A stretch of DNA of 64,000 bases from NCBI GenBank assembly GCA_937872175.1, contig CALMPI010000009.1, positions 198,343-262,342 on the forward strand, read 5' to 3'. A model generated the notes under the pieces. It was not told the origin of the DNA and did not search any database. It saw only the letters and a program-made list of their open reading frames with translations. A program made the translations under genes and the position numbers. Below are positions 4,425 to 52,465 of this stretch, piece after piece (position 1 is the stretch's first letter; each line of letters opens with the position of its first letter). The stretch comes from an uncultured Flavobacteriales bacterium (GTDB lineage Bacteria; Bacteroidota; Bacteroidia; Flavobacteriales_F; PHOS-HE28).

Positions 4425-4448
4425 GTGCATGATGCGGGGGCGAGCTGG

Positions 4449-7113: not shown

Positions 7114-7179
7114 TGTCGTGTTCGATTGGTCGGGGTACTGACCCTTGTCGCCCAGGTCGGGCGAGGCATGCCTCGCCCC

Positions 7180-7557
7180 TTACTTGGTCGCTTTCTTCTT
7201 GTTGGCCACGGTCTTGCGCTTGCCCTTGCGGGTGCGGCTGTTGGTGCGGGTGCGCTGGCCGCGCACGGGCAGGCCGCTGCGGTGGCGCAGGCCTCTGTAG
7301 CTGCCGATGTCCATCAGGCGCTTGATGCTGAGCTGCACCTCACTGCGCAGGGCACCCTCCACCTTGATGTTGTCGTTGATGAACTGGCGGATGCGCGACT
7401 GCTCATCGTCGCTCCATTCCTCCACCTGCTTGTCGGGGTCGACCTCCGCGTTGCGGAGGATCTCCAGCGCGCGGCTGCGCCCGATGCCGTAGATGTAGGT
7501 GAGCCCGATGGCCCCGCGTTTGTGCTTGGGTAGGTCGATGCCTGCGATACGTGCCAT
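7180..7557 (-). CDS. rpsM: 30S ribosomal protein S13
   Basis: [34 protein letters not shown]. Confidence 0.95.
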
Positions 7558-28395: not shown

Positions 28396-28478
28396 GTGCC
28401 AGGCGATGTCGGTGGCGGTCAGCACGTGCACAAGGCTACGAAGCCATCCGGTTGCGCGGGGCCCCCTACCTTTTCGCC

Positions 28479-30566
28479 ATGCCCGGCAAGCACATCCTAC
28501 TGTGCCTCGCACTTTCCTGGGCCCAGGTCCCCCTTGGGGCACAACCTGTGGATGTGGTCGTGGACGAGGTGGACACCCTGATCCGAGCGGCCGAGGTCGT
28601 GTCCTTGCGTGAGCTGCGCGAGCTGCGGACGGAGGTGCCCGGGGTGGGCCATGAGGTGCCGGGCATGGACCTGATGGAGGAGTGCTCTCCGGTGCACACC
28701 GCGTTGGATGATGCGTCGAACGCCCTGCGCGATCTTGAGGACAGCACTTGGGCCGCTGTGTCCCGCGTGGAACGTGATGACCTGCGTTCCATGACCGGTG
28801 TGCACTGGGTGCGCCTTCACCTCGTCGCACGTCCTGAGCTGAAGGGCGCATCCCTACTTCTGCGCGTGGTCTCCAGGGTCCCGTTCGAGGTGTTCGTCAA
28901 CGGCGTGCGGACGGGCGCGATCGATGAGCTGCCGCGGTCGAGCATCGGTTCCTTGATGCCACGCTCGGACTCGGTGCCCGTGGTGGAGGTGCCGGTGCGT
29001 TTCGCGGCCGATGGTGAAGTGGAGGTGATCGCGCTGCGCCTGACGGGAACACCGGGAGACGCCCTTCAGCAACTCGGCTTGCGCGTCACCCTGCACGCGG
29101 CGGACCGGGCGTATGCCGTGCAACGGACGACCTTCCACTACGGCATCTTCATCGGCATCAATGCGATCATCCTCCTCCTGTCCCTGTTCATCTGGGCGGA
29201 CGACCGGCGGGATCGGGGCTGGGGCCTGCTGGCCCTGCTGTCGCTGGCCTCGGTGCTGGACACGGTGGCCGAGGTCGGAGGGGAGCAACGCCTGCTGGGG
29301 CTTCAGGATGGCACTGCGGACATGCTCGATGCGATGGCCACCGTGCTTGTTCCCTGGCCCCTCTTCCTGTTGATCATGGTCCTGCGTCATCTGCGCGGCG
29401 ACGCGGACGCTCGGGGATCGCGCCGGTTCACCTGGATGGTGATGGCCATGACGGTGACCCTGCTGGCCTTTGTGGCCGCGGTGCAGGGCGGTCTGGCCGA
29501 CACCACGAACGGCCTCAGCTTCACCAACACAAGCATCCCCCTGGTGGTCGGCGCTCTTCTTGGAGGGCTCGTCATGGCCGTCGGCATGGTTTGGTTCACC
29601 ATCGAGGTGGTGCGATCAGGGGTCCGGCTGCTGAGGTCCGGAGGTTATGAACGCTGGGTGGGTGCCGGCGCGGTGGCCTCGTTGCTGCTCACGCTCGTGC
29701 TGCAGATGGGCAGTGAGTTCACCGGCATGGCGTTGAGCGGTTGGTTGTCCACCCTGGCGGATTATTGCGCGTACGTGGCCGTCCCCGTGAGCGTCGCGGT
29801 CTATCTCGGCATCCGGTCGGCGCACCACAACCGCCTGGTGGCCCGTCAGCGCGATGAGCTGGATGCGGAGGTGAAGGAGCGCACGGCCGAGCTTCGCACC
29901 GAGAAGGAACGGTCCGACGCGTTGCTGCTCAACATCCTGCCCGCCGAGGTGGCCGAGGAATTGAAGGCGAAGGGCGCCGCGGACGCCCGCCACTTCGACA
30001 GGGCCACGGTGCTGTTCACGGACTTCCGGGGGTTCACGCAGCTCAGTGAGCGGGTGGGGCCGGCCGAGCTGGTGGCGGAGCTCAACGCGTGCTTCAAGGC
30101 CTTCGACGCCATCATGGAACGGCACCGTGTGGAGAAGATCAAGACCATCGGTGATGCATACATGGCCGCCGGCGGCCTGCCCGATCCGGCGCACGGCTCA
30201 CCGGCCGATGTGGTGCATGCGGCACTGGAGATGCAGGAGTTCATGGTGCGGCACAAGGCCGATCGGGAAGCGCAGGGCCGGCCGTGGTTCGAGATGCGTG
30301 TGGGGATCCACAGCGGCCCGGTGGTCGCCGGCATCGTGGGGGTGAAGAAGTTCCAGTACGACATCTGGGGCGATACGGTGAACACGGCTGCGCGCATGGA
30401 GAGCAGCGGCGAGGTGGGCCGGGTGAACATCAGCGGGGCGACCCATGCCCTGCTGAAGGAGGTGCCGGGCCTGGTCTTCACCCCGCGCGGAAAGGTGCAG
30501 GCCAAGGGCAAGGGCGAGCTGGAGATGTATTTCGTGCACCGCAGTGCCGACGCGATCTCAGCCTGA
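28479..30566 (+). CDS. Membrane receptor-type class III adenylate cyclase: signal peptide, periplasmic sensor domain (7TMR-DISMED2-like), 7TM region (7TMR-DISM-like), coiled-coil, cytoplasmic cyclase homology domain
   Basis: Seven hydrophobic helices lie between about aa 230 and 480. The catalytic domain reads ATVLFTDFRGFTQL…KIKTIGDAYMAAGG…RVGIHSGPVVAGIVG…YDIWGDTVNTAARMES. The Lys and Asp specificity residues indicate ATP as substrate. The start was taken at the Met of MPGKHILLCLALSWAQ. Confidence 0.85.
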   Translation: MPGKHILLCLALSWAQVPLGAQPVDVVVDEVDTLIRAAEVVSLRELRELRTEVPGVGHEVPGMDLMEECSPVHTALDDASNALRDLEDSTWAAVSRVERDDLRSMTGVHWVRLHLVARPELKGASLLLRVVSRVPFEVFVNGVRTGAIDELPRSSIGSLMPRSDSVPVVEVPVRFAADGEVEVIALRLTGTPGDALQQLGLRVTLHAADRAYAVQRTTFHYGIFIGINAIILLLSLFIWADDRRDRGWGLLALLSLASVLDTVAEVGGEQRLLGLQDGTADMLDAMATVLVPWPLFLLIMVLRHLRGDADARGSRRFTWMVMAMTVTLLAFVAAVQGGLADTTNGLSFTNTSIPLVVGALLGGLVMAVGMVWFTIEVVRSGVRLLRSGGYERWVGAGAVASLLLTLVLQMGSEFTGMALSGWLSTLADYCAYVAVPVSVAVYLGIRSAHHNRLVARQRDELDAEVKERTAELRTEKERSDALLLNILPAEVAEELKAKGAADARHFDRATVLFTDFRGFTQLSERVGPAELVAELNACFKAFDAIMERHRVEKIKTIGDAYMAAGGLPDPAHGSPADVVHAALEMQEFMVRHKADREAQGRPWFEMRVGIHSGPVVAGIVGVKKFQYDIWGDTVNTAARMESSGEVGRVNISGATHALLKEVPGLVFTPRGKVQAKGKGELEMYFVHRSADAISA

Positions 30567-30596
30567 GGGCAGGCGGGATCGGGAGGGGCGATCGTG

Positions 30597-31238
30597 CTAC
30601 ACCAGGCCCTCCCGCAATGCCACGCTGATCGCACCGGCCATGCCCTTCACCTGAAGCTTCTCGTAGATGTGGCTCACGTGCGTGTTCACCGTGGCATACG
30701 AGATGCCGCAACGGTCGGCGATCATCTTGTAACTGTACCCGTCCACCAGGTAGCGCAGGATCTCCAGCTCGCGCTCGGTGAGGTTGAAGTCGACGGACCT
30801 CAGGGCGACATTGCCGCGTTGTGCGAACAGCTGCAGCACCTTGGCGGCCACCACCGGGGTCATCGGAGCGCCACCCTGGGCCACTTCGATGATGCCATCG
30901 ATCAGCTTGGTCGGCGTGGTCTGCTTCAAGAGGTAACCGTTCGCTCCGGCGAGGATGGCATGGAAGATCTTGTCATTGTCCTCGAAGACCGTCTGCATCA
31001 GGATCTTCACATCCTTGAACTGTTTTCGGATGAGCGACACGCCGGTGATCCCGTCCACGTGCGGCATGTCGATGTCCATGAGCACGACGTCGGGGTCGGT
31101 CTCCGCGATGTGGCGGACCACCTGACGGCAGTCGGGCCAACTGCCCGCGAAGGTCAAGCCCTCCGTGGAGTCGATGAGCAGCCGAAGCCCGTCGCGTCGT
31201 TTGGCATTGTCATCGAAAATGGCCACACGAAGGTCCAT
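30597..31238 (-). CDS. Two-component response regulator, NarL/LuxR family (REC + LuxR-type HTH)
   Basis: The phospho-acceptor region VVLMDIDMP and a C-terminal LuxR HTH (LTERELEILRYLVDGYSYKMIADRCGISYATVNTHVSHIYEKL) are present. Confidence 0.9.
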   Translation of the reverse strand: MDLRVAIFDDNAKRRDGLRLLIDSTEGLTFAGSWPDCRQVVRHIAETDPDVVLMDIDMPHVDGITGVSLIRKQFKDVKILMQTVFEDNDKIFHAILAGANGYLLKQTTPTKLIDGIIEVAQGGAPMTPVVAAKVLQLFAQRGNVALRSVDFNLTERELEILRYLVDGYSYKMIADRCGISYATVNTHVSHIYEKLQVKGMAGAISVALREGLV

Positions 31239-31247
31239 GACGCGAAG

Positions 31248-34200
31248 CTATCCGACCGGCTGGCCATCCTGCCTCATTGGTTCCAATGACCTTCTGCCGG
31301 AGGTCGGATCGAACCGGAGCTCCACCGTGGTGCCCTGTCCCGCTGCGGAGGTGATGGTCAGGGTCCCGGGCAGTTCGGCGGCGCGCTGGCGCATGTTGAT
31401 CAGCCCGTTCCCCCCTCCGGGGCTGTGGCCGTTCGAGCCCGGGTCGAACCCGACCCCGTCATCGTTCACGCGCAAGACGATGCATCGGCCATCGCGGGAC
31501 AGCTCGATCCGCAGGTGCGCGCAGCCGGAATACTTCACGGCGTTGTTCACCGCCTCCTTGAAGATGAGATACAGGTTCTTGCGCTGGGCCATGCCCAGGC
31601 GCCAGGTCTTCAGGTCCTCCTCTGCCTGGAAGGACAGGACGCACTCCCGCGCTTCGGTCACGCCCACGGCAAAGGCCATCATGCGCTTGACCACGCTGGC
31701 CATATCGTCGTTGTCCGCGTTCACGGCCCACACGATATCGTTCATCACCTCCATCACCTGTGTGGTGCTCTCCGTGATGCGACCGAGGAGATCGCTGGCT
31801 TCGGGTGCCCTGCCCCCCACCTTGCGTTGTGCCACGGTGCTCAGCAGGGATACGCTGCTCAGTGTGGACCCGATCTCGTCGTGCAGGTCCCGTGCGATGC
31901 GCTCACGCACATGGACCACTTCCACGGCGCGGTCCAGGCGATAGCGGTAGATCGAATACACAGCGGCGAGCGCAGCGAGCGCCGTTGCGATCCGGAACCA
32001 CCATGTCCCCCACCACGGAGCATCGATCTCCACCCTGAGGCTGGCCCCGTCACGGTCCCACACCCCCTTGCTGTTCCGTCCCTGGACCTGGAACGTGTAC
32101 CGCCCAGGGTCGAGGTTCGTGAACGTCGCGGTGCGCTCGGTCCCTGACTCCACCCATTCGTCGCTCAGGCCGACAAGGCGGTATCGGAACGTATTGCGCA
32201 TCGGATCGGACAGGTCCATGCAGCTGAACTCGAACGTGAGCATGCGTTCGTCATACGGGAGAGCGATGGATGATGAAAGGTGGACGGGTCGGTCGAGGAC
32301 ATCCGGATGGCTTGCCTCGCTCACGCGCTTGTTCATCAATCGAAGGCCGGAGATCAGGGTCGGTGATGGCTCTTCCGTACCATGGAACCGCTCCGGGTCG
32401 AACCAGGTGATGCCCTCCATGCCGCCGAAGAACATCAGGCCGTCAGCGCTTCGTTCGGCACTGTACCGATTGAATTCGTTGCCGGCGATCCCGTCGGACG
32501 AGGAGTAGGTCCGGGTGGTTCCGGTGCGCGGATCGAACCGGCAGAGCCCCCTGTTCGTGCTGATCCAAAGATGACCTCGGCGGTCGCTCAGAATGCCGTA
32601 GATCACATTGTTCGGCAGGCCATCGGCCATCGAGAACCGCTCACATTGCCCGGTGGTCATGTCCATCTTCGCCAATCCGCTTCCGGCCGTGCCGACCCAG
32701 ATGTAGCGCTCCGGCGCTTCAGGGTCGAGATGAAGGGCGAACACGACATTGGAGGGGAGTGACGTGGGATCCCCGGGGACCACCGTGAACCGCCGCCACT
32801 CACCGGTCGAGGGCCGCAGGGAAAGCACGCCGAGGTCCGAACCCATCCAGATCGACCCCCCCGGGGCCACCTGCCAGCTGGAGATGCCTCGACGTGTGCT
32901 TCCTTTCACTGGCGCCGGGAGCATGAAGTGGGCCAGGCGCTCTCCCGTTCGAGTGTCAAAGGCCGAGAGGGCGGTGTCCTTGTCCGTTGTTCGGTCCGCT
33001 GTGCACACCCAGATCGTGTCGCCAACACCGGGGAACAGGTTGATGAAGTAGTCGTCCGGGCCCTTGGTCATCGGGGTGACCGATCCATCCGCGGGATCAT
33101 GGCGGTACAGGTGGCGCACATTCGACGCACCGCGCCGGATGCCACAGAACCAAAAGCGACCCTGCGGGTCGCGGACGCATCGTTTCCAATCCGCCTGAAG
33201 TCCATGGTTCGCCAGTGCTTCTGCCAGCCCGGTGGACCGGAGCGGCTGCACCGTGTCGTTGAGGACCTTGAACTCGTCCGCATTGACCAGCATCCGGCCC
33301 CCCAGATCGCAACTGACGATCTCCGTGCAGCCGACCTCCCCGGTGTCGTCGCTCCATCGATGGAACCGTTCGGCCAAGGGGTCGTACTTCACCAACCCAT
33401 GGCCCGTGGTACCACACCACAGGATGCCCATGCGGTCCATGGCCCATGAGGCGAACCACGCCAGGGAGAGGATCCGGCCGTTCTCCAGGACCGGTTGCAG
33501 GAAGGTGGTGGTCCGGTCACGCAGATCCGTTCTGAACCACGAGCCCTGACCAGTGAGGCCCCAAAGCCGGTCCTTGTTGTCCAGGAACAACCGGGACTCC
33601 CTGCTCTGCATCTGTTCGATGAGGATGGTGTCCGTCGCGGAACGGTCCGCGGCATTGAAGACCACGATGCGATGGTCCCAGGAAAGCAGGATGCGGTCCG
33701 CCCCATCGTTGGTCACGAGCTCCGGGAAGAACGAATTGTCGTCGTGGGGCCAGTGGATGGGAACGGTGATGCGCTCGGTCATTCGGCCGTGGACCCAGGA
33801 TAGCACCGACAGGTGCTGCTTGCCAAGCAGCCACACGTCGCCGTTGGCCGCGATCTCCATGTCCCGGAGCCCAGCCGTGCTCACTTCCCCGTGCACGTCA
33901 CCGAGCCGCAGAAGTCGTGGAGCTCCGTTCATGGCTGCGGCATCGGCCGGGACGATGAACACGGTCCCGAAGAAGCAGTGGATCCAGATGTCGCCGCTCG
34001 GATGCTCGGCGATGTGCACGACGGTCGGAACGGTCTGGTCCTCGGCGGATACCGGGACATGCGTGAACCGGCCTGTGGCGGGGTCAAGGACATCCACGCC
34101 CTTGCTGTCCGTTCCGATCCAGATCCGCCCGCGCTTGTCCTGCATGAGACTTGTGACGTGGCTCTCGGAGATGGTCGAGCTGTCCTCGGGATCATGCCGA

Positions 34201-34415
34201 TGGACCACATGCTCATATCCGTCGAACCGGTCGAGGCCATCCTTCGTGGCGAACCAGAGGAAACCGGACCGGTCCTGAAGAATGGCCCACACCATGCCCT
34301 GTGGCAACCCATCGTCCACGGTGATCAGCTCCGCCGGGACCCTTCGGGCGGGTGCCGATGGTCGTTGCGCCACGGCCAGGGTGGCGAGCAGGTATGCGGC
34401 GATCGCGAGTCGCAT
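31248..34415 (-). CDS. Sensor histidine kinase with a periplasmic two-component-regulator beta-propeller array and Y_Y_Y domain, one TM helix, and HisKA_3 + HATPase_c
   Basis: The signal peptide MRLAIAAYLLATLAVAQ is at an internal Met (about 34415). There are many Reg_prop-like repeats. The TM helix is WWFRIATALAALAAVYSIY. The H-box reads ERIARDLHDEIGSTLS and the ATPase carries the G-boxes VNDDGVGF…GGNGLINMRQRA. Confidence 0.88.
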   Translation of the reverse strand: MRLAIAAYLLATLAVAQRPSAPARRVPAELITVDDGLPQGMVWAILQDRSGFLWFATKDGLDRFDGYEHVVHRHDPEDSSTISESHVTSLMQDKRGRIWIGTDSKGVDVLDPATGRFTHVPVSAEDQTVPTVVHIAEHPSGDIWIHCFFGTVFIVPADAAAMNGAPRLLRLGDVHGEVSTAGLRDMEIAANGDVWLLGKQHLSVLSWVHGRMTERITVPIHWPHDDNSFFPELVTNDGADRILLSWDHRIVVFNAADRSATDTILIEQMQSRESRLFLDNKDRLWGLTGQGSWFRTDLRDRTTTFLQPVLENGRILSLAWFASWAMDRMGILWCGTTGHGLVKYDPLAERFHRWSDDTGEVGCTEIVSCDLGGRMLVNADEFKVLNDTVQPLRSTGLAEALANHGLQADWKRCVRDPQGRFWFCGIRRGASNVRHLYRHDPADGSVTPMTKGPDDYFINLFPGVGDTIWVCTADRTTDKDTALSAFDTRTGERLAHFMLPAPVKGSTRRGISSWQVAPGGSIWMGSDLGVLSLRPSTGEWRRFTVVPGDPTSLPSNVVFALHLDPEAPERYIWVGTAGSGLAKMDMTTGQCERFSMADGLPNNVIYGILSDRRGHLWISTNRGLCRFDPRTGTTRTYSSSDGIAGNEFNRYSAERSADGLMFFGGMEGITWFDPERFHGTEEPSPTLISGLRLMNKRVSEASHPDVLDRPVHLSSSIALPYDERMLTFEFSCMDLSDPMRNTFRYRLVGLSDEWVESGTERTATFTNLDPGRYTFQVQGRNSKGVWDRDGASLRVEIDAPWWGTWWFRIATALAALAAVYSIYRYRLDRAVEVVHVRERIARDLHDEIGSTLSSVSLLSTVAQRKVGGRAPEASDLLGRITESTTQVMEVMNDIVWAVNADNDDMASVVKRMMAFAVGVTEARECVLSFQAEEDLKTWRLGMAQRKNLYLIFKEAVNNAVKYSGCAHLRIELSRDGRCIVLRVNDDGVGFDPGSNGHSPGGGNGLINMRQRAAELPGTLTITSAAGQGTTVELRFDPTSGRRSLEPMRQDGQPVG
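31274..31289. promoter_or_regulatory. Perfect 16-bp palindrome TCATTGG-TT-CCAATGA (7-2-7) within the last ~15 codons of the kinase gene, ~35-50 nt upstream of the response-regulator start; candidate operator
   Basis: Read directly from the sequence. The same 7-2-7 palindrome recurs at 34636-34651. NarL/LuxR-family regulators classically bind 7-2-7 heptad inverted repeats. The coordinate may be off by 1 nt. Confidence 0.4.
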
Positions 34416-34635
34416 CGATGGCGGAAGTTCGGGAATATCGGGCCGCCCGCGCTGATGCCCTGTCCTGTTCCCGCGGCACGCACGCCGTGCCCACGACCGA
34501 CCGGCCGGCAGCTGGGCGCCGAGCGTGCGGCACCGCAAGGGATAGGGCCGGTGGACCGTCACAGGTCCGGGCCGCGCCCGAACGGCCTTCGGGGACCGGC
34601 TCCGTTCGCCGGCCACCTCAAGCCGCCCATCTGTC

Positions 34636-34651
34636 TCATTGGGACCAATGA
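34636..34651. promoter_or_regulatory. Second copy of the palindrome TCATTGG-GA-CCAATGA plus an extra half-site TCATTGG at about 34669-34675, in the divergent intergenic region about 100 nt upstream of the T9SS cargo gene and about 220 nt upstream of the kinase gene
   Basis: Read directly from the sequence (…ctgtctcattgggaccaatgatggaccatgccgaaggtcattgggatgg…). A TTCTTTTG element sits about 35 nt upstream of the cargo-gene ATG. Confidence 0.4.
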
Positions 34652-34751
34652 TGGACCATGCCGAAGGTCATTGGGATGGAGGATGGACGCCGCGCCGGGG
34701 CTGGGGTTCTTTTGCCGCGTGGCTTCACGATCAACGCTTGACCCTTGCACC

Positions 34752-36461
34752 ATGAGAACACTTCGTACCCCGCTCTTTTTCTTCATCCTGCTGCTCCGCA
34801 TGTCATCGGCTACCGCCCAATGGACGGATGTGGTGAACAACAACATCAACTTCGAGTTCCGCTCGGACCAGACCAGCTTCACGGGAAGCGACGACGGGTT
34901 CCCCACCTACGATGCCGAACCCACCGTGCGCAATGATTTCTGGGTGAGCAGCCTTGGTTGGTACGGATGGGTGTGCTCGAACTGGTCGACGTCCTCGGTA
35001 CCCTATCAGGGTGACCCGAGCGGCACCTATTTCTGGGGGACCAACCATCCGTTCACCGCGGAATTCCAGATCACGCTCCAGGCATGGGAATCGGACAACT
35101 CGGACCCGTGCAGCTACACCTCCGGCGATGACGATTTCTGGAACGGGAACGCCATCCTTCGTGACGGGAACATCCAGATGCCCGTGGTGTACCCCAGCAC
35201 GGATTTCAGGCCTTGCGCCTGGAACCCCTGGCTGGCCTCCGGCACGGGCTGGATCTTCCCGAACGCCGGGGTCTGGAACCAGATCTGGTCCGAGACGTGG
35301 CGCTATTCCGCCGGCGATGTGGCCTCCGATCCGCTCAGCTTCGGCACCATCACCACAGGTCAGACCAAGGCTGACATCAACGCGAACCGATCCGTTCCCG
35401 TGTCCAGCAGTGCGCCGCTCCAGTATGGGGACACCTACGGGGAGTCATCCGCTGACGTGTGGTACTCCTTCACACTGGATCAGGCCGCCACCGTCACCAT
35501 CAGCACGGATGATCCGGTGACCGACTTCGATACGAAGGCCTATTTGTTCTACGACTTCGGGAACATGATCGCCTCGGATGACGATGGCGGCACGGGCGCC
35601 ACATCGCTCATCACCACCGCTCTTTGTGCCGGCACCTACAAGGTGTGCGTCGAGGGCTTTTCGTCCAGCACGGGCCTGTTCCGCTTGTCGGTCACGGCGG
35701 GATCATTGAATGCGCTGTCGCTGGCCACCACGAACATCACGCCGGTGAGCTGCGCGAGCGCGACCGATGGGGCCGCCAGCTGGGCGACCGGGGGCGGAGT
35801 GGCCCCGTTCGAGTATGTGCTGGACGGGAACAACATCGGTGGAGCGACCTCGGGCGGTTCGCTCGGGTTGGGTGCGCACACCGTGATGGCCGAGGATGCA
35901 TGCGGATCGACGACCAGCATCACCTTCCAGGTCGACAATGGTGACAGCACCCCGCCGACGGCCGTATGTCTGGGCGCGCTCGCGGTGGATGTGATCGACC
36001 AGCAGACCACGATGCTCGATCCGGCGGAGGTGGACAATGGAAGCACGGATGACTGCGGTCCCGTCGATCTGAGCGTCTCGCCGGCCGCATTTGATGTGGA
36101 CGATGTCGGGTTGGTGGATGTGACCCTGACGGTGACCGATGGGAACGGGAACACCAGCACGTGCATCTGTGTGGCCGTGGTGCAGAACGTGACCGCGATC
36201 GGGGAGCCCGGCTCGGACGGTCGGATCCTCGCCGTACCCAACCCGACCGACGGTCAGGTCCGCCTCGATCTTTCGGCACTTGCGGTCGGCAGCGACACCC
36301 GATTGGAGCTTCTGGATGCGCTCGGTCGTTCGGTGCATGGTGTCCGGCCCGCCAGTTCCATCATGGACCTCGATCTGGGGCAGCTGGCCGACGGTGTGTA
36401 CACCGTGCAGCTCGTCGACCCGAACTGGCGGTCATCGACGCGTCTGGTGCTGCGTCGGTGA
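34752..36461 (+). CDS. T9SS-secreted multidomain protein: signal peptide, about 230-aa N-terminal domain of unknown family, PPC-like (pre-peptidase C-terminal) domain, SprB-type repeat, HYR-like domain, and a C-terminal Por secretion-tail (type A CTD)
   Basis: The start MRTLRTPLFFFILLLRMSSATAQ lies inside the 882-aa track ORF. The PPC-like segment (…VWYSFTLDQAATVTISTDDPV…YLFYDF…) is followed by a SprB-like repeat (SCASATDGAASWATGGGVAPFEYVL…). The CTD reads ILAVPNPTDGQVRLDL…GVYTVQLVD. Confidence 0.85.
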   Translation: MRTLRTPLFFFILLLRMSSATAQWTDVVNNNINFEFRSDQTSFTGSDDGFPTYDAEPTVRNDFWVSSLGWYGWVCSNWSTSSVPYQGDPSGTYFWGTNHPFTAEFQITLQAWESDNSDPCSYTSGDDDFWNGNAILRDGNIQMPVVYPSTDFRPCAWNPWLASGTGWIFPNAGVWNQIWSETWRYSAGDVASDPLSFGTITTGQTKADINANRSVPVSSSAPLQYGDTYGESSADVWYSFTLDQAATVTISTDDPVTDFDTKAYLFYDFGNMIASDDDGGTGATSLITTALCAGTYKVCVEGFSSSTGLFRLSVTAGSLNALSLATTNITPVSCASATDGAASWATGGGVAPFEYVLDGNNIGGATSGGSLGLGAHTVMAEDACGSTTSITFQVDNGDSTPPTAVCLGALAVDVIDQQTTMLDPAEVDNGSTDDCGPVDLSVSPAAFDVDDVGLVDVTLTVTDGNGNTSTCICVAVVQNVTAIGEPGSDGRILAVPNPTDGQVRLDLSALAVGSDTRLELLDALGRSVHGVRPASSIMDLDLGQLADGVYTVQLVDPNWRSSTRLVLRR

Positions 36462-37263: not shown

Positions 37264-39162
37264 CTATCGGCCGATGGAGGCTTGATCGGCCTTCACGACC
37301 TTGAACTCGGTGCGCCGGTTGGCCTGGTGCTCCTCTTCAGTGCACTTCACGCCATCGCCGCATCCGTTGACCAGCCGTTCCTCGCCGTATCCCATCGCAT
37401 GGACGCGCACGGGGTCGGCGCCACGACGGATCAGGTAGTTCACCGCGCTGTTCGCGCGCGCGTCGCTCAACACCAGGTTGTACGGCACGCTGCCACGGGC
37501 ATCGGTGTGGGCGCTGAGCTCGAAGCTCAGGTGCGGATTGTCGTTGATGAGCTGCACCACACGGTCAAGCTCCTTCGCGGCGTCCAGGCGGATGTCCCAT
37601 TTGTCGTAGTCGTAGTAGATGTTGTTGAGCACGAAGCTCTGCCCCACCTGGGCCCCTTGCAGTTGGATGCCATGGTGCAACGTGTCGGAGCGCAGCAGGC
37701 CTTTGGTGCTCACCTCGATCGAGCGGGTCAGGTGATCGGCATGCGCGGCCTTGATGCGGTAGTCGGTGTTCGGCTTCAGGGGGAACGAGAAGGCCCCGTT
37801 GGGACCGGTGATGGCCGTGACATCCTCGTTCAGCGTCAGGTCGGTGAGCGTCACATGGACGTTCGGCAGGAACAGGCCGGAATCGCCCGTCACCTCGCCT
37901 TCCACGAAGAAGGTGGGCTCATAGGCCCAGAACACGTAGACCTGATCGCTGCCTTCGCGGTTGCTGCTCAGATAGCCGCCCTGTTCAGTGCTGTCGAGCA
38001 CCAGGCCGAAGTCGTCGAACGGTGTGTTCAGCGGAGCGTTGAGGTTGCGCGGCGTGCTCCAGCCTTCGTTCTCCGGATGCGTCTCGAACACGTCCAGCCC
38101 CCCCATGTTGCGGTGCGCGGTGGAGGAGAAATAAAGCGACTTTCCGTTCACCACGGGGAACAGCTCATTGCCGGGGGTGTTCACCGTGGGCCCGAGGTTC
38201 ACCGGTGCGGTCCACCCGGCGCCGCGATCCTCGCTCATCCAGATGTCGGTTCCGCCAAGCCCCCCGGGACGGTCGCTCACGAAGTACATCGTGCGTCCAT
38301 CGGCGCTCAGCGCCGGATGCCCGGTGCTCCAGTCGGGACTGTTGTAGGGGAAGTCGATCAGGTCGCCCCATTGCCCTGCACTGTCCAGCGTGGCGCGGAA
38401 CAGCATCAGATGGCTCGTGTTGGCGTCGTCCTTCATGAGCCGGCGCTTCAAATAGTCGCTGCGGGTGAAGTAGAGCGTGCGTCCATCGGGGGAGAGCACG
38501 GCCGGCCCTTCGTGATAGGGACCGTTCACGGCGCCGGGGAGCGGTACGGCCTCGGTCCAGGTCACCACCGTGCGCTTCTCCACGGTATAGAGGTCCATGT
38601 ATGAGAGTCCGTCCCAGGGATCGGCCTTGGCGGCCGGCGCGGGCCGTTCACCCACCAGCAGAAGGCCCTTGCCATGGGGCCGTGGGCTGAAGGCCGTGGT
38701 GAGGCCGGGCAGGGTGAGGCGGTTGACGATGTAGCGGGCGCTGTCCGTGTAGAACAGGGCCACATCGCGGGTGGAGGCGAAGAGGTCCTGTGCCCGCCGG
38801 TCCTCGGGTGTCTCTTCCAACACGCGCAGGAAGAGCGCGGCCGCGGCATCGGTGCTCCCCGAGGAAAGCAGCACCTGTCCGTAGTGCAGCGCGGTGTCGC
38901 CGCTCAGGCGGAGCGTGGCGTCGGCGAGCGCATAGAGCTCGCGGGCCCTATGCGGGTCGTTCTGCCGGAAGAGCGCTTCGGCGAGCCGCACCTGCACGTG
39001 ACGGACCGGGGCACTTCGCAGGGCGCGGTCGAAATGGTGGGAGGCCTTGCGGTATTGCATCAGGTCGAAGGCCTTGTCGCCCTTGTGCAGGTGCAGGCTC
39101 GCGCAGGAGGTCAGCAGGGCCGCGCCGGCCAGAAGGAAGGTGTGGCGCACGGTTGGGCTCAT
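37264..39162 (-). CDS. OmpA-family peptidoglycan-associated lipoprotein with PorE-like architecture: lipobox signal, TPR region, TolB-like PD40 beta-propeller repeats, carboxypeptidase-regulatory-like domain, and a C-terminal OmpA_C domain
   Basis: The signal LLAGAALLTSC has a lipobox. PD40 repeats are present (LSPDGRTLYFTRSD, LSADGRTMYFVSDRPGGLGGTDIW). The OmpA_C motif reads NNIYYDYDKWDIR…LSAHTDARGSVPYNLVLSDARANSAVNYL…MGYGEERLVN…RRTEFKV. Confidence 0.85.
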   Translation of the reverse strand: MSPTVRHTFLLAGAALLTSCASLHLHKGDKAFDLMQYRKASHHFDRALRSAPVRHVQVRLAEALFRQNDPHRARELYALADATLRLSGDTALHYGQVLLSSGSTDAAAALFLRVLEETPEDRRAQDLFASTRDVALFYTDSARYIVNRLTLPGLTTAFSPRPHGKGLLLVGERPAPAAKADPWDGLSYMDLYTVEKRTVVTWTEAVPLPGAVNGPYHEGPAVLSPDGRTLYFTRSDYLKRRLMKDDANTSHLMLFRATLDSAGQWGDLIDFPYNSPDWSTGHPALSADGRTMYFVSDRPGGLGGTDIWMSEDRGAGWTAPVNLGPTVNTPGNELFPVVNGKSLYFSSTAHRNMGGLDVFETHPENEGWSTPRNLNAPLNTPFDDFGLVLDSTEQGGYLSSNREGSDQVYVFWAYEPTFFVEGEVTGDSGLFLPNVHVTLTDLTLNEDVTAITGPNGAFSFPLKPNTDYRIKAAHADHLTRSIEVSTKGLLRSDTLHHGIQLQGAQVGQSFVLNNIYYDYDKWDIRLDAAKELDRVVQLINDNPHLSFELSAHTDARGSVPYNLVLSDARANSAVNYLIRRGADPVRVHAMGYGEERLVNGCGDGVKCTEEEHQANRRTEFKVVKADQASIGR

Positions 39163-39164
39163 GA

Positions 39165-40088
39165 TCAGAAGTAACGGGGTGACTTGATGCGGATGGGGTC
39201 CTTGCCAAGGTCGATGCCGAGCATCACCTCATGCGATCCTCCACTGAAACGGCGCAGGCGTGAGGTGGTCATGTCGTAGGCATAACCCACCCGGAACACC
39301 GGCGTGATCTGGTATTCGACCATGGCGATGGCGCCGTCGCCGGTGCGGTAGCCAGCGCCCACCCAGAGCCGTTCGCGGAACAGGACGTTGCAGTTGATGT
39401 CGGCCTGGGGCGGCGCGGCGGTCTCCACCTTGATGAGCACCGAGGGCTTCAGGTCGATGCTCTCGCTGACGGGGAACACGCGTCCGGCGTGCAGATAGAA
39501 GTGACGCGTGAAGTAATCGTCCACCACGGTGGCGTTCGCCTGGCTCACCTGATCGTCCGCGCTGTAGAGGTTCGGCACGGACAGTCCGACGTAGGTGCGT
39601 GGGTCGTGCCAGTAGAGGCCGAAGCCGAACTTGCCCACGAGGGCGTTCCTCAGGTTCTGGGCATACACCGCATCGTCCTCATCCCAGTAGGTGAGTTCGC
39701 TGAGGCGTGCCGAGTACACGGATAGGCCGGCGCGCAGACCGAAGGCCAGGCGGCTCGATCCGCCGGTCCGGATGCTGTAGGCATAGTGCCCTGAGATGTC
39801 CAGGTCGCGGCTGATGCCGATCTGGTCGTGGACCACGGAGAGCCCGAGGCCCATGCGGTCTTTCCAGACCGGACCATCCACTGCGGCCATGCTGGTGCGC
39901 GGCGCGCCGGGCATGTTCGTCCATTGCTCGCGGTGCAGCAGGCTGCCGCTCACGTACGGATGGCTTCCGGCGTAGGCGGGGTTCAGGAAGAGCCCGTTGA
40001 ACATGTACTGGCTCACCATCACCTCCTGTTGCGCATGCGCCGATGCGCAGGCGAGCAGGATGAACAGCAGAGGTAGGATGCGGTGCAT
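39165..40088 (-). CDS. sprF: Type IX secretion system membrane protein, PorP/SprF family
   Basis: The signal peptide is MHRILPLLFILLACASAHAQ. The PorP/SprF signature QYMFNGLFLNPAYAG follows, with a beta-barrel-like remainder. The gene lies immediately 3' of the type-B CTD giant gene. The track start at 40127 is an alternative. Confidence 0.9.
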   Translation of the reverse strand: MHRILPLLFILLACASAHAQQEVMVSQYMFNGLFLNPAYAGSHPYVSGSLLHREQWTNMPGAPRTSMAAVDGPVWKDRMGLGLSVVHDQIGISRDLDISGHYAYSIRTGGSSRLAFGLRAGLSVYSARLSELTYWDEDDAVYAQNLRNALVGKFGFGLYWHDPRTYVGLSVPNLYSADDQVSQANATVVDDYFTRHFYLHAGRVFPVSESIDLKPSVLIKVETAAPPQADINCNVLFRERLWVGAGYRTGDGAIAMVEYQITPVFRVGYAYDMTTSRLRRFSGGSHEVMLGIDLGKDPIRIKSPRYF

Positions 40089-40123
40089 GGCGGAAGGTGT
40101 TTGCGTTCGTTCCGAGTTCGCGT

Positions 40124-43100
40124 TCATCGGCGGAGGTCCACGTAGTTCTGCATGGGAGCTCCATCGGGTGTCAGCGTGAGCACCACGAAGTAGGTGCCGT
40201 TGGGCAGCGGCTCGCCCTGCAGGTTCTCCCCGCTCCAGTCATTGGTGTAGCGCACACGGTCGTACACCACGTTGCCCCATCGGTTGTAGATGATGATGCG
40301 GTTGTCCGGATAGGCCTCGAGCCCTTGCACGACAAAGCTGTCGTTGCTTCCGTCCCCGTTCGGTGTGTAGCCGGTCGGCATCACCACGTCCATGGGCTGG
40401 TCGAGCGTGAAGGAGACGGTGATGCTGCAGCCGTTCGCATCGGTGATCGTCACGGTGTACGTGCCGGCGGCGAGCCCTTGCACCGTGGCCCCGTCGGCGC
40501 CGTTGCTCCAGGCGAAGCTGTACGGTGCCGTGCCGCCATCGGGTGTGATGGTGATGCTGCCGTCGTTGCTTTGGTGACCGCTGAGGTTGTATCCATTGGA
40601 GTAGGTCACCACCAGGCTGTCCAACGTCAGTGTGGCGCCATCGTTCACGGTGAAGGCGCTGTTCCAGGTGCATCCTGCGGCATCGCTCACGGTCACCGTG
40701 TAGGTGCCTGCGGCAAGCCCGCTCATGTCCTCGGACCCGGAGCCCGTGTTCCACAGGAAGCTGTATGGCATCGTGCCGCTGGTCACGCTGAGGTCGATGG
40801 AGCCGGTCGCGCCGGCCAGGCAGCTGGCATTGGTCACGACAGCCTCGGCGCTCAGGGCCGGCCCGCCCTCCACCTGCACAGGCAGCGTGGCGATGCAGCC
40901 GTTCAGGTCCGTGATGCTCACTTCGTAGGTGCCTGCGGTCAGGCCGGCGATGTCCTCGGTCGAGCTGCCATGGGCCCAGGCGAACGTGTAGGGAGCACCG
41001 CCGCCCGTCACGCTCACATCGACGGCGCCGTTGGCCTGGCCGCAGCCGGCCGCGGTGGCTGTGAACGTGGCGTCGATCGCGCTTGCCGCGATGAGGTCGG
41101 TGCAGGCCTGTGCCGAGCATCCGTTCGCGTCGGTCACCGTGAGGCAGTAGGTGCCCGCGCCCAGTCCGGCGATGCTGTCGGCGTTGCTGCTGAAGCTGCC
41201 CGGACCGGTCCAGAGGTAGGTGTACCCGCCCGCACCACCGCCGGCCAACGCGATGAGGAGGCCATCGTTGACACCGGCGCAGCTGGTGTTGCTGCCGCTC
41301 GGGTAGGTGAAGGCGACGGGCTGAGGATCCACCGGGTCGGGCGCGGTGATCACCACGTCCTGCAGGCTGACGCAGCCGTTCATGTCGGTCACGGTCAGGG
41401 TGTACGACCCTGCGGCGAGGCCGGTGAGGCTGTCGGCCGTGCTGGCAAAGCCGTTGGGGCCGCTCCAGTTGAGCTGTGCTCCGCCGTTGCCCCCGGTCAC
41501 GGTGGCGACCAGCACGGCATCGCCGACCCCGTCGCAGCTCGTGTTGAAGCCGTTGTAGGTGCTGATGTCCAGGACCGCCGCAAGTGCGCTATCGGGCTCG
41601 GTGAGCGTGATGGTGAGGAGGGTGGCGCATTGGTTCGCATCCGTGATCACCACTTCATAGTCACCGGCGATCACGCCGTTGAGGTCCTCGCTGGAGTAGT
41701 TCGTGCTGTCCGGTCCGCGCCAGTCGAAGGTGTACGGCCCTGAGCCACCACTGATGGTGAGGTCGATGCTGCCGTCGCTTCCGCCCAGGCAGCTGATGTT
41801 CGTGCCGCTCGGGAAGGCTTGGGCCGTGAGGCTGCCGTCGATCGGCTGCGCGGGTTCGGTCAGGGTGAAGCTCGTGTCGCGTTGACACCCGTTGGCATCG
41901 GTCACGCTCAGCATGTAGGTGCCGGCCACAAGGGCGGTGAGCGTGTCCGCACCGCTCGCGGTGAACCCGTTCGGTCCGCTCCAGAGCAGGTCCAGCGGTC
42001 CGGACCCTCCGGTGGCCAGCACCGCGATCACCCCGCTGCTGTCGCCGGTGCAGGCGATGTTCGTGGTTCCTGTCAGGCTTACATAGGTGCTGAGCTCGAT
42101 CGGTGCGCTGGCGGTCATGGTGGTGCTCCAGCTTCCGCTGCAGGACCCGGCATCGAGCACGGTCACGCTGTACGTGCCTCCGACCAGTCCGGAGAGGTCC
42201 TCGCTCGAGGCGCTGAATCCACCGGGGCCTGTCCAGGTGTAGGTGTATGGAAGCACCCCGCCGCTCACCTCCAGGTCGATCGTCCCGTCACTGCCGCCGT
42301 CGCACACGGTGCCGCTGTTGCTCAAGGCGGCCTGCAGCGGCTGGGGCGCTGTGAGCACGGCCTGCTCCGTGGCGATGCAGCCATTGGCATCCACGAGGGT
42401 CGCTACGTATGTGCCCGCCGCAAGGGCGTTCAGGTCCTCGGTGGCCGCCGTGAAGCCGTTGGGGCCGGTCCAGTCGATCTGGTAGGGGGCGAGGCCACCG
42501 GTGATGGTGAGGTCGATGCTTCCGTTCGCCGCCCCGCAGCCCACTTGGTAGCCATTGCCGGCATCGCTCAGCACCAGGTCGCCATCGAAGGCGGGTGGTG
42601 CGCTCAAGGCGAGGGCCTGCGTCACCGAGCATCCGGCGTCGTCGCTGACGATCACGGTGTAGGTCCCTGCGGCCGATCCGTTGATGATCGGTGTGGATGC
42701 CGTGAAGCCGCCCGGTCCGGTCCACGCATAGTGAAGCGTACCGAGGCCACCGGTGACGGTCGCCGTGATGCTGCCTTCCTCGCTGCCGGCACAGGGCAGG
42801 GTGTAGCCACCGCCGAACAGGGCGGCTTGAAGGTCCAGTGTGATCGGTGCCGGCGCCGTGAGCGTGGCGGTGATGGTTCCGGTGCACCCGTTCATGTCGG
42901 TGATCGTCGCCGTGTAATCCCCGGCCCCAAGGCCGCTGGGATCCTCGTCATTGCTCATGAAGCCGTTCGGTCCGCTCCAGATCACGCTGTACGGCGCCGT
43001 GCCGCCCTGCGCGGAGAGGTCGAGGGATCCGTCGCTGGCACCATCGCAGCTTACACCCGTGCCACCACCGAACACGCTCGTGGTGATGCTTCCATCCACC

Positions 43101-46100
43101 GGAGCTGGTGCTGTGAGCGTGACGTTCTCCTGCGCGGTGCAGCCCGCGATGTCGGTCACCTGGATCGCGTACGTGCCGGCCGCCAATCCCGTGGGGTCCT
43201 GCATGGAGGCGCTGAATCCGTTCGGACCGCTCCAGCTCACCGTGTACGGGGCCAGTCCTCCTGCGATGGTGGCATCGATGGAGCCGGTGGTCGCGCCGTC
43301 ACAGCTGGTGTTGGCGCCGCCGGGCCAGACACTGGCCAGCAGGCCTACGTTGAGCGGAGCAGGGGCCACGAGCGAGTATTGCTCGAGGTGGCTGCATCCG
43401 TTGACGTCGGTGATGATCACGAAGTAGTTGCCCGCAGGGACACCCATGATGTCCTCATCGTTGCTGGCGTATCCGTTCGGGCCTGTCCAGCTGTACTGGT
43501 AGCCGGGCGTGCCTCCGGTCACCCCGATGTCAAGGGATCCGTTCGAGGCACCTGCACAGCTCACCTGGTAGCCGCCCGGGTAGCCGCTCATCAACGAGCT
43601 CACCACGAACATGCCGGGTTCCTGCACGTTCACAGGCTGCGTCAACGTGCAGCCGTTCGCGTCGGTGATGGTGGCGACGTACACGCCGGCGTGCACGTTG
43701 GCGATGTCCTCGCTCGACGCACTGAAACCGTTCGGACCGCTCCAGCTGAAGGTCATGGGGGCGATGCCGCCGGCCGGGGTGAGGTCGATGGAGCCATCGG
43801 CGTTGCCCTGGCAGAGCGCGTCCTGTACCTGCTGCGTGGTGGTGAGGGCCGCCGGCTCGTCAAGCAGGAAGCTCGCCGATGCGGTGCATCCGTTGGCATC
43901 GAGCACGCTCACGGTGTATGTGCCTGCGGACAGACCGGAAGGGTCTTCCGCGGTGGCGACGAACGCGTTGGGGCCCGTCCATTGAAAGGTCGCGCCCCCG
44001 GCGCCACCATTGATGTCAAGGTCGATGCTGCCATCGGATCCGCCCGCGCAGGAGATCGCCGTGCCCCCCAGTGTGCTGCCGGGTGTGCCCGTGAGCACAA
44101 GCGCATCCGGTTCGGTGAGCGTGGCGCTGGCGTTCGCCACACAGCCGTTCGCGTCGACCACGGTGGCCGTGTAGGTCCCCGCCATCAGGTTGCTGAGGTC
44201 ACTGCCCGTGGCCGTGAAGCCGTTCGGGCCGCTCCAGGAGACGGACAAGGGAGCGCTGCCTCCGGAGAGGCTCAGGTCGATGGAGCCGTCGTTCGCGCCA
44301 TGGCAGGATACGGCATCACCGCTGGCGGTCTGGCTTAGCGCGAGGGTGGAGGTGATCGCTGCCGGTTCTTCGAGGACGACGGTCGCCATGTCGGTGCATC
44401 CGTTCGCGTCCGTCACGGTCAGGGTGTAGGTGCCCGCCGTCAGACCGGAGATGTCGTCGCTGCCGGACGTGTATCCGTTCGGTCCGGACCAGGCGTAGGA
44501 GAACGGCGCGGTGCCACCGAAGACCGTCGCATCGATGGCGCCGTCCGATCCGCCTACACAGCTGATCTCGCTGCCGTTGTGTTTGGGAGCGATGACCACC
44601 ACGTTGATCGTGGCCGGTGCGCTCAGGGTCCAGGCCTCTGCTGTGGAGCAGCCGTTCGCGTCGGTCACGGTCACGGTGTATGAGCCTGCGGCGAGGTTCG
44701 TCAGGTCCTCGTCCGTGCTCGTGAAGCCGTTGGGTCCGGACCAGGCGAAGGTGTAGGGCGCCGTCGCACCCGATACGCTGAGGGCGATGCTTCCGTCGGT
44801 GGCACCCGCGCAGCTTACACCGGAACCGTTGAGGTCGCTCAGGATGGCGGTGATGGTGAAGAGACCGGGCTGCATCACGCTGTAGGTGCGCTGGATGCTG
44901 CATCCGTTCGCATCGGTCACGAGCACGGTGTACGCACCGGCCGCCAGCCCGCTCAGATCGGCGGTGGTGGCGCTGAAGCCGTTGGGCCCGGACCAGCTCA
45001 TCAGATAGGGCGCGGTGCCCCCGGTCACGTTCAGGTCGATGGCGCCATCCGCTGCGCCCTGACAGGCGGCGGGGCTGATGCCGGCCGTGGCATCCAGCGC
45101 CGCAGGCTCGGTGAGGGTGAAACCCGCGGTCGTGGTGCAGCCGTTGCCGTCGCTCACCATCAGGGTGTAGGCACCGGCGCTCAGGCCCGTCACATCCTCA
45201 AGTCCGGTCTGGTTGCCCCACTGGTCCGACCAGAAGTAGTTGTACGGCCATGTACCACCGCTCACCGTTACATCGATCGCTCCATCGTCGCCGCCGTTGC
45301 AGGAGACGTTCGTTCCGGAGTGGTCGCTCAGCAGTCCGGTGATCGCGAGCGGTGAGGCCGGTTGCGTGATGGTGACCGGCATCTGCTTCGGGATCGCACA
45401 TCCGTTGTTGTCCACGACCGTGGCGGTCCAGGTCCCGGCGGCAAGGCCGGTCGCAAGGGCTCCGGTCTGCACCGGATTGGTGTTCCAGGTGATGCTGAAG
45501 TTCCCGCTGCCGCCCGTCACCTCGATCTCTGCGAAGCCATCGCTGCCGCCATGGCAGCTCACCATACCGAGGTTCTCCACGTAGGGCACGATGGTGGCGG
45601 CGGGCTGTGTGATCGTCACCACGGTGCCGGTACTGCAACCGTTCGCATCCTGCACGCTGGCGGTGTAGCTGCCGGCGATGAGGTTGGATGCGGTGCCGCC
45701 CGTCTGCACGGGTGTCGAGTTCCATGTGATGGAGTACGGCGCCGTGCCACCTGCGGCGATCACCGTGGCGGTACCGGTATTGGCCCCATGGCAAAGGACG
45801 TCCGTCACCGTGGATGCCGTGAGCGAAAGGGGGGCCGCAGGTCCGCCGATGGTCACGGTGGTGGATGCCGTGCATCCGTTGGCGTCCGTCGCGGTCGCCG
45901 TCCAGGTCCCTTGTGCGAGTCCGTTCGCCGTGGCACCGAACTGGATCGGCGTGGTGTTCCACGCATACGTGTAAGGCGCGGTTCCGCCCGTGGCGTTCAC
46001 CGTGGCCTGACCGTTGGCGCTGCCGAAGCAGCTCTGGTCCGTCATGGATATGGTGGTGAGCCCAAGGGCGACGGCCGGCGCGGTCACCACGGCCTGAGCG

Positions 46101-52100: not shown

Positions 52101-52465
52101 GTGCGCCCGGTGACGGCGTTGAGCACGGGGTCGCCCGGTGTCCCTTGGGCGAACCAGTTGCCGCCGCCACCATTGTTGTTTGGACCGATGGCATCGGTGA
52201 TGCGCCCTGTGGTGAGGATCACGCCCTCCTCGGCGGAGAGCGCGCTCCCGCTGTAGCTGAACTCGCCGTAACCCAGGCCATGGCAGGTGATCACCGGGTT
52301 GCTGATGGTGACACCGGGACCGGTGATGCTGGCCGCGAGCTGCTGCAGATCGGTCTGCGCGTTCACCACCAGCTGGGCGTTCGCGGACGGGGTGATGACG
52401 CACAGTGCCGCGACGACGAGCGTCGCGGCGGCGGAACGGCGGCGATCGTGGCGCATCGTGCTCAT
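40124..52465 (-). CDS. Giant cell-surface adhesin (4113 aa), SprB-like: signal peptide, N-terminal choice-of-anchor-L-like domain, about 40 tandem SprB-type repeats, and a C-terminal gliding-motility-associated type-B T9SS sorting domain
   Basis: The N-terminus is [31 protein letters not shown]. The repeats have the form …C.G..[ND]G.[IA].[LV]..[ST]GG..PY.[YF].W.GP.G[FY]…GL.AG.Y.[LV].V.D.NGC…. The C-terminus [36 protein letters not shown]…[20 protein letters not shown] is a CHU_C/type-B CTD. Confidence 0.93.
   Translation of the reverse strand: [4113 protein letters not shown]
40408..51058 (-). repeat. In-frame tandem array of about 40 degenerate SprB-type repeats, each about 250-270 nt (about 85 aa), inside the giant adhesin gene; this is coding sequence, not CRISPR
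   Basis: The TGG[ST]xPY / GPNGF / NGC motifs recur at regular ~85-aa spacing through the protein. At the DNA level the copies have diverged and the spacers are not unique, so this is not CRISPR-like. Confidence 0.8.

Follow-up and report, generated by a model that had tools for sequence, protein, structure and literature searches.

The stretch of DNA analysed here, which is called the window below, comprised 64,000 nucleotides (64 kb) of contig CALMPI010000009.1 (positions 198,343 to 262,342, assembly GCA_937872175.1) from an uncultured Flavobacteriales bacterium, with a G+C content of 65.5%. A two-component system and a divergently transcribed gene for a secreted protein were identified in it, together with a 16-bp palindrome, TCATTGGnnCCAATGA, which occurred once at the 3' end of the kinase gene and once in the divergent region, and which is the element in question. 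The three genes of the locus were as follows.

30597-31238, minus strand: response regulator of 213 aa (Response_reg 1.1e-21 and GerE 4e-18, Pfam).
31248-34415, minus strand: sensor histidine kinase of 1055 aa (signal peptide, Reg_prop beta-propellers, Y_Y_Y, HisKA_3 2.4e-10, HATPase_c 7.7e-14).
34752-36461, plus strand: secreted protein of 569 aa, referred to as the cargo (signal peptide, PPC, and a C-terminal sorting domain of type A of the type IX secretion system (T9SS), Por_Secre_tail).

The kinase started with the ATG at 34415, which was followed by the signal peptide, leaving a divergent intergenic region of 336 bp (34416-34751), and only 9 nt separated the kinase stop from the regulator start. 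In the regulator, D9/D10, D55 and K105 could be read from the translation, with D55 in the REC domain, and the recognition helix of the GerE helix-turn-helix was ATVNTHVSHIY. Over its full length the regulator matched VraR (1.6e-29; closest entries 5HEV, 7VE6 and 4GVP) and NarL (6.7e-25) among solved structures, and it stayed below the NCBIfam equivalog cut-offs for NarL (121.7 vs 250 bits) and NarP (98.6 vs 343). The H-box histidine of the kinase, H845, was unchanged in 16 orthologues. Neither Response_reg nor HTH_AraC/HTH_18 was found in the kinase by Pfam, which gave HisKA_3, the domain that pairs with regulators of the NarL/VraR class, in place of HisKA; its homologues formed a graded series of 37-53% identity, and hybrid relatives appeared only as distant matches (27-30% identity). 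The cargo had been described in an earlier, sequence-only reading of this DNA as a secreted PPC/SprB/HYR protein. The PPC domain and the T9SS C-terminal domain were recovered by Pfam, while neither SprB nor HYR gave a Pfam match at E <= 0.001.

The palindrome was present in two exact copies in the window, at 31274-31289 and 34636-34651. Both followed the pattern TCATTGGNNCCAATGA, that is TCATTGG-nn-CCAATGA, with the spacer TT in the former and GA in the latter, and this pattern was matched 0 times in 100 dinucleotide-preserving shuffles of the window, so the palindromes are real and chance is excluded. When up to three mismatches to the 16-mer were allowed, two extra weak matches were obtained, which is the chance level. 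Apart from these, TCATTGG stood alone at 23314, 40239, 52462 and 58840 and CCAATGA at 24968 and 62591, close to the numbers expected from composition (~2.6 and ~1.4, respectively). None of these six heptamers had an operator-promoter architecture, and no further such site existed in the 64-kb window. The sequence-only reading, which had reported two identical perfect palindromes found nowhere else in the 64 kb and only isolated half-sites besides, was thus borne out on both points.

The conservation of the palindrome was followed in two sets of loci. One was motif-blind and consisted of the contigs of six kinase homologues and 80 loci from a kinase-profile scan of metagenomes. The other came from a scan of 185,579 species-representative genomes, the source genome not being among them, for the paired arrangement (palindrome, 10-40 nt, TCATTGG). 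All six motif-blind loci with a regulator at least 71% identical (L001, L003, L004, L008, L009 and L012) had the 16-mer, with one mismatch at the most, at the 3' end of the kinase gene, and had it also in the divergent region wherever that region was present. The paired-arrangement scan gave 50 stretches, about 20 of which were Flavobacteriales metagenome-assembled genomes (MAGs) with a GC of 0.60-0.66, all with a gap of 16-18 nt, and in nearly all of these ~20 loci homologues of the kinase (35-45% identity across the full protein) and of the regulator (72-83%) were adjacent. The regulator-proximal copy, which lay outside the search pattern and is therefore independent evidence, was found in 9/9 pattern-fetched loci that included the kinase 3' end. 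At least 20 high-GC Flavobacteriales MAG loci held the orthologous pair with the 16-mer at the same places, the regulator (71-84% identical) being far more conserved than the kinase (35-53%). In 228.5 kb of family loci, 37 sites with at most one mismatch were counted, all at canonical places, and the paralogous kinase loci, which belong to other clades, had none in 555 kb. Alignment of the sites of orthologous loci gave the family operator consensus TCATTGGAnnCAATGA, two inverted heptamers with a 2-bp spacer, which is the 7-2-7 geometry. The view of the sequence-only reading that this is the architecture of the NarL family agreed with the adjacent protein, which was of NarL/VraR type over its full length.

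Matches of the paired-arrangement scan outside the Flavobacteriales (Proteobacteria, Algoriphagus, Methanosaeta and others) had neither a kinase or regulator homologue nearby nor a second site, and were taken as chance, about 8 such matches being predicted under uniform base composition by our estimate. An AT-rich intergenic region of an Acidobacteriota MAG (L134, JBCCGX010000252.1, 1540-1740) contained 4-5 palindromes similar to TCATTGGnnCCAATGA, three of which were spaced at exactly 42 bp, with no kinase or regulator homologue near them; they resemble an operator or iteron array belonging to an unrelated system with the same CCAAT/ATTGG core. A contig labelled as a Lysobacteraceae MAG (L102, SSEV01000172.1, 63% GC) contained a paired site, a kinase homologue and a GEVED/glucoamylase cargo, and was probably mis-binned because its contents match the Flavobacteriales loci.

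Around the two palindromes, the following candidate operators and promoter elements were assigned in the window.

31274..31289, no strand: operator O_RR, perfect 7-2-7 palindrome TCATTGGTTCCAATGA (exact match; found in the same position in 15 loci, with no more than 1-2 mismatches).
31243..31250, minus strand: predicted sigma-A -7 box TAGCTTCG of the regulator gene (consensus TAnnTTTG; position-matched to TAGyTTTG of orthologues).
34636..34651, no strand: operator O1 (upstream site), perfect palindrome TCATTGGGACCAATGA, its centre ~32 bp before that of O2 and at ~-75.5 from the predicted cargo start.
34668..34683, plus strand: operator O2 (promoter-proximal site) TCATTGGGATGGAGGA, outer half conserved, inner half degenerate, with TGG next to it.
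34707..34714, plus strand: predicted -7-like box TTCTTTTG for the cargo gene, separated from O2 by 23 nt and from the cargo ATG by 37 nt.
34416..34635, minus strand: GC-rich spacer of 220 nt that separates O1 from the kinase ATG, recognised by comparison with L008-type orthologues.

O_RR was located inside the last kinase codons, and the C-terminal tail encoded there was not conserved as protein among orthologues. It had been placed 35-50 nt upstream of the regulator start by the sequence-only reading; the place was right, and the distance was corrected to -36 to -51 from the ATG. The same regulator-side layout was observed in 15 loci, in which the 16-mer was followed by 23 nt, by TAGyTTTG with its TAG serving as the kinase stop, by 4-19 nt and by the regulator ATG, and the palindrome centre lay 31 nt from the -7 box. 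In the window the TAG of TAGCTTCG (31248-31250) was the kinase stop codon and the regulator ATG came 4 nt further on. The box read TAGyTTTG in 13/15 loci, with the window matching 5/6 specified bases, and the -33 TTG element was absent from all regulator promoters of the 15 loci.

In Flavobacterium psychrophilum the -7 box TAnnTTTG occupies -12 to -5 (PMC9723704), and by this measure the 16-mer would span -51 to -36, with its centre at about -43.5. The transcription starts predicted for the window were 31238 (minus strand) for the regulator and ~34719 (plus strand) for the cargo. The spacing of 4 nt between box and ATG was shared by the window, L001, L004, L009 and L095, and since the predicted start falls on the A of the ATG in these loci, the regulator mRNA would be leaderless there. 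Such a recurrence would be notable because leaderless mRNAs represent only 5.5% in F. psychrophilum (PMC9723704).

In the divergent region, the sequence-only reading had seen an extra half-site 20 nt away from the palindrome. This half-site was present, its distance being smaller, as it began 16 nt after the palindrome (34668-34674); judging by the layout, it is the promoter-proximal site of the cargo gene and the perfect palindrome is its upstream partner. In 18 promoters the cargo-side layout consisted of the 16-mer, TTG, 20 nt, TTnnTTTG, 19-41 nt and the ATG of a signal-peptide protein, with TCATTGGAnnCAAsGA-TTG as the family consensus of the proximal site, in which the outer half is conserved and the inner one degenerate. 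The -33 TTG with a 20-nt spacer to the -7 box, for which about 19-21 nt would be expected, was present in 16/18 of these, TGG being found in the window. The proximal site abutted the -33 TTG and lay 23 nt from the -7 box, its centre being again at about -43.5, and the upstream site was a perfect or one-mismatch palindrome in 18/18 paired-site promoters. The two centres were 32/34 or 41/42 bp apart, which corresponds to 3 or 4 helical turns and puts both sites on the same face of the DNA. The absence of a -33 element from the regulator promoters and its presence in most cargo promoters is consistent with activator dependence and is not proof of it.

The side of the divergent region facing the kinase varied between loci. 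In L008-type orthologues, which had no 220-nt spacer, the palindrome was found 21-22 nt before a -7-like box of the kinase's own, TAAGTTTC, which stood 11 nt before the kinase ATG, and these loci had two back-to-back promoters with one site each. A weak counterpart of this box, GATATTCC, occurred in the window at 34432-34439 (minus strand). The spacer of the window was also considered as a structured RNA or a repeat, and this was rejected, with a fold z of -1.63 that was not significant, no other copies and no Rfam match. A different insertion, a CT-rich imperfect tandem repeat (ctctcactctttcaccctctcac...), was seen between the palindrome and the kinase -7-like box in a Flavobacteriales MAG (L116, ~5700-5800); judging from this and from the window spacer, the junction of palindrome and kinase promoter may be an insertion hotspot.

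The genes behind the paired sites differed between genomes, all of them encoding proteins with a signal peptide. In some relatives they were GEVED-domain proteins, a protein with GEVED and PF10091 ('putative glucoamylase'), 1,340-aa Sortilin-Vps10/BNR/PKD proteins, or 'NFSGFSYQAVVRD' proteins followed by a subtilase; in the window it was the PPC protein, the only one of these proteins in which the T9SS sorting domain was detected. The cargo of the window was not shared by its nearest relatives, L095 and L110, whose regulators were 83% identical and whose promoter was followed by a 'NFSGFSYQAVVRD' protein. Three paired-site promoters were located away from a kinase-regulator pair, namely L118, L119 and a second promoter 2.7 kb downstream in L124, each with a terminator-like hairpin on the side that would face the kinase. 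L118 belonged to the same MAG as L108, and L119 to the same MAG as L136, L108 and L136 being kinase-regulator loci with the motif. Since paired-site promoters occurred remote from the pair, the regulon would extend beyond the locus in some genomes, and the module is not strictly self-contained as the sequence-only reading had proposed; since they occurred without a kinase, the upstream palindrome would belong to the cargo promoter in its own right.

In L124 the two whole paired-site promoters, at 4445-4494 and 7176-7225, were placed before a gene for a GEVED-domain protein and then one for a Sortilin/BNR-type protein, apparently as a result of a duplication of the promoter module itself.

The palindrome changed together with the recognition helix of the regulator. 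ATVNTHVSHIY was invariant in all 14 aligned loci with the TCATTGG motif, while L006 had the helix ATVNSHVTHIY with the site yCATTAnnnTGAATGA, and L007 the helix …HVHHIY with the site TCAATGAatTCATTGA. Regulator genes of other clades were preceded by other palindromes: CCTAATATTAGG in the clade with the helix HTVNxHLKxIY, CTACATn4ATGTAG in that with DTVRFHIKKIY and CCGCATn4ATGCGG in that with DGIRYHIRHIY. The centre of these palindromes was 30-31 nt before the -7 box in most loci, and 22-24 nt before poorly matching boxes in L034, L082 and L088 of the CTACAT clade; several loci held second copies, with almost no background elsewhere. No other computational evidence argues as strongly as this co-variation of palindrome and helix that the site is read by the adjacent regulator and not by another factor.

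In L007 (~9160-9185), which belongs to a lineage with 51% GC and has a regulator 68% identical, the half-sites at the operator position before the regulator gene were in swapped order, TCAATGA-at-TCATTGA vs TCATTGG-nn-CCAATGA. The swap accompanied a Ser-to-His change in the recognition helix and may reflect a different dimer geometry.

The sequence-only reading had offered the palindrome as a candidate operator of the adjacent regulator, and this is supported by its conservation at both positions, its absence from paralogous loci, its geometry and the co-variation with the helix. The interpretation favoured here, with a probability of about 0.78, is that the NarL/LuxR-type regulator would act through the palindrome as an activator of its own gene and of the secreted-protein gene. 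The periplasmic beta-propeller/Y_Y_Y kinase would sense an extracellular ligand, possibly a glycan, autophosphorylate on the HisKA_3 histidine and transfer the phosphate to D55 of the regulator, which in its phosphorylated form would dimerise and bind TCATTGGnnCCAATGA. At the kinase 3' end, a dimer centred at about -43.5 of the internal sigma-A promoter, which has no -33 element, could recruit RNA polymerase and give rise to a leaderless or near-leaderless regulator mRNA, amounting to positive autoregulation. In the divergent region, one dimer would sit on the perfect palindrome and another, 32 bp or three helical turns along the same face, on the half-degenerate site; the latter dimer would lie against the -33 position, and both would cooperatively activate the secreted-protein gene. 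In many relatives, in which the perfect palindrome stands 21-22 nt before the kinase -7-like box, the feedback may reach the kinase too.

Several points weigh against this interpretation. The promoter boxes were assigned from the consensus only, and in the window the regulator box TAGCTTCG is one mismatch off that consensus, while the cargo promoter is the most degenerate of the family, having TGG where orthologues have the -33 TTG, an inner half-site that is degenerate, and TTCTTTTG as its -7 box. In the window the palindrome lies 220 nt from the kinase start, which makes feedback on the kinase promoter doubtful there. The loci L089-L138 were chosen by the motif itself, so their upstream sites are not independent evidence. 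The sign of regulation is read from the position of the sites alone, and the same regulator could act at the same sites as a repressor, blocking read-through or occluding the internal promoter (negative autoregulation) and silencing the cargo until the signal is removed, which is considered unlikely. NarL-family proteins do repress at some 7-2-7 sites, frdA for example, but the frdA repressor site is at -4/+6 (PMC4549865), whereas the sites of this family end at -36, beside the -33/-7 elements and the start and not over them, and their centre at -43.5 matches the activating sites of napF and yeaR. A site within the kinase-regulator transcription unit could also be a roadblock, and the cargo promoters of orthologues, having a -33 TTG, could work without an activator; the regulator promoter, however, has no -33 in any of the 15 loci, as an activator-dependent promoter would. 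Activation is therefore favoured over repression, the sites flanking the core elements instead of covering them.

It also counts against the activator interpretation that a different dimeric transcription factor with the same specificity, encoded elsewhere and co-occurring with the kinase-regulator pair, is formally possible, and the paired-site promoters away from the pair (L118, L119 and the second site in L124) would suit such a factor. It is judged very unlikely: the motif occurs strictly with one regulator clade and changes with the recognition helix, a copy is present at the regulator's own promoter in every locus, and the genomes with the remote sites L118 and L119 also hold a motif-bearing kinase-regulator locus (L108 and L136, respectively). 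Hardly credible is a role other than that of an operator, with the palindromes serving as recombination sites on either side of the kinase gene, as the termini of a small mobile element or as hairpins in the kinase-regulator transcript. Two identical inverted repeats do flank one gene, and the left flanks of both window copies are alike, CCATC(C)TGyC; yet no recombinase gene was found among the called genes of the fetched loci, remote copies occur without a kinase gene, and the spacing to the promoter boxes is fixed to the base. A hairpin or attenuator was rejected, as the fold reaches only -4.8 kcal/mol, within the range of shuffles, and a stem of 7 bp closed by a loop of 2 nt is sterically unfavourable. 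It is the sequence and not the pairing that is kept, since G7 is constant where position 10 varies, and one arm is lost in the proximal sites; a search of 30400-35000 against Rfam gave no match up to E <= 1.

A duplicated kinase C-terminus at 34636-34651 was considered as well, the minus-strand translation 'SLVPMRQMGG' resembling the kinase tail 'SLEPMRQDGQ', and was discarded. The likeness is limited to the palindrome and ~10 nt and is explained by the shared motif, and the tail is not conserved.

Three known types of systems invite comparison with the locus. Like E. coli NarL/NarP at napF and yeaR, it combines a NarL/FixJ-family regulator (REC and LuxR/GerE) with a HisKA_3 kinase and a 16-bp candidate 7-2-7 operator centred at about -43 to -44 beside the upstream promoter element. 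The 7-2-7 sites of the NarL-activated napF and yeaR span -40 to -49 and -38 to -47, and NarL output domains bind inverted heptamers with 2-bp spacing as dimers (PMC4549865), a mode of binding that would apply here too. The half-site is TCATTGG here and TACCCCT in the engineered narG site (PMC4549865). The locus departs from E. coli NarL in its predicted promoters, which follow the sigma-A model of Bacteroidota (-33 TTG / -7 TAnnTTTG), in its sensor, a periplasmic beta-propeller/Y_Y_Y kinase and not NarX/NarQ, and in its predicted targets, which are secreted proteins and not respiratory enzymes. With its receiver, its GerE domain, the adjacent HisKA_3 kinase and the heptamer repeat all found, the locus is, by these features, one of a NarL/FixJ-family regulator with a probable 7-2-7 type operator; the regulator is not a NarL orthologue, to judge from the different half-site and the equivalog score below the cut-off.

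With the hybrid two-component systems of Bacteroides the locus shares a Reg_prop/Y_Y_Y periplasmic sensor encoded beside secreted or surface proteins. The sensor of those systems is thought to control the adjacent secreted or surface proteins of polysaccharide utilisation loci. They have kinase, receiver and AraC-type domain in one polypeptide with HisKA (PF00512), whereas HisKA_3, a kinase with neither receiver nor AraC-type domain and a separate LuxR-type regulator were found here; by its domain content, the locus is not a Bacteroides-type hybrid system. The third type is VraSR/LiaSR, VraR being the best match of the regulator among solved structures (E = 1.6e-29). VraSR/LiaSR have NarL-family regulators which activate their own operon from inverted-repeat sites; they are systems of Firmicutes with intramembrane-sensing kinases, and their autoregulation proceeds from the upstream promoter of the operon. 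At the locus described here, in contrast, the regulator gene alone appears to be transcribed from an internal promoter into which the kinase stop codon is built.

A full-text literature search gave no description of a Reg_prop/Y_Y_Y kinase of this type paired with a LuxR regulator, and no regulator-operator pair has apparently been described for the classical (non-hybrid) systems of this kind, which are common in Bacteroidota. That a two-component system regulates itself through a 7-2-7 operator is textbook circuit logic, and what is new is the candidate operator, the promoter models and the family-wide rule. They yield a concrete candidate operator, promoter models precise to the base and candidate targets (GEVED, putative glucoamylase, Sortilin/BNR-type, and PPC with T9SS), as well as a rule for related systems, in which the palindrome should be sought ~31 nt ahead of the -7 box that includes the kinase stop codon. 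The hosts are uncultured high-GC Flavobacteriales, many of them MAGs from wastewater plants.

Tentatively, and with somewhat less than an even chance, a design common to the whole family of Y_Y_Y/HisKA_3 and NarL pairs in Bacteroidota may be proposed. An activator-dependent promoter internal to the pair, with its -7 box on the kinase stop codon and a clade-specific palindrome centred at -42.5/-43.5, would yield a leaderless regulator mRNA, and positive feedback would raise the regulator independently of the kinase; helix and operator would follow a specificity code, and the whole would be a portable cassette. If this is true, the changes of helix and palindrome (N-T-H-V-S, N-x-H-L-K, R-F-H-I-K and R-Y-H-I-R) would be a readable specificity code, which could predict the operators and regulons of hundreds of uncharacterised systems. 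The kinase-regulator-operator cassette would then be portable, acquiring different secreted-protein genes in each genome.

As for the neighbouring genes, a class III adenylate/guanylate cyclase of 704 aa (Guanylate_cyc 2.4e-55, with an HNOBA-like linker) was encoded at 28452-30566 on the plus strand, convergent with the regulator gene and ending ~30 nt from its stop. Beside the cargo gene, three minus-strand open reading frames (ORFs) extended over 37264-52465, encoding 4,113 aa (40124-52465), 320 aa (39165-40127) and an OmpA/TPR/PD40/CarboxypepD_reg protein (37264-39162). The lone TCATTGG at 52462, which had no promoter architecture, overlapped the start codon of the 4,113-aa ORF. The layout of the three ORFs recalls T9SS adhesin clusters, the Pfam check having covered the OmpA-type protein.

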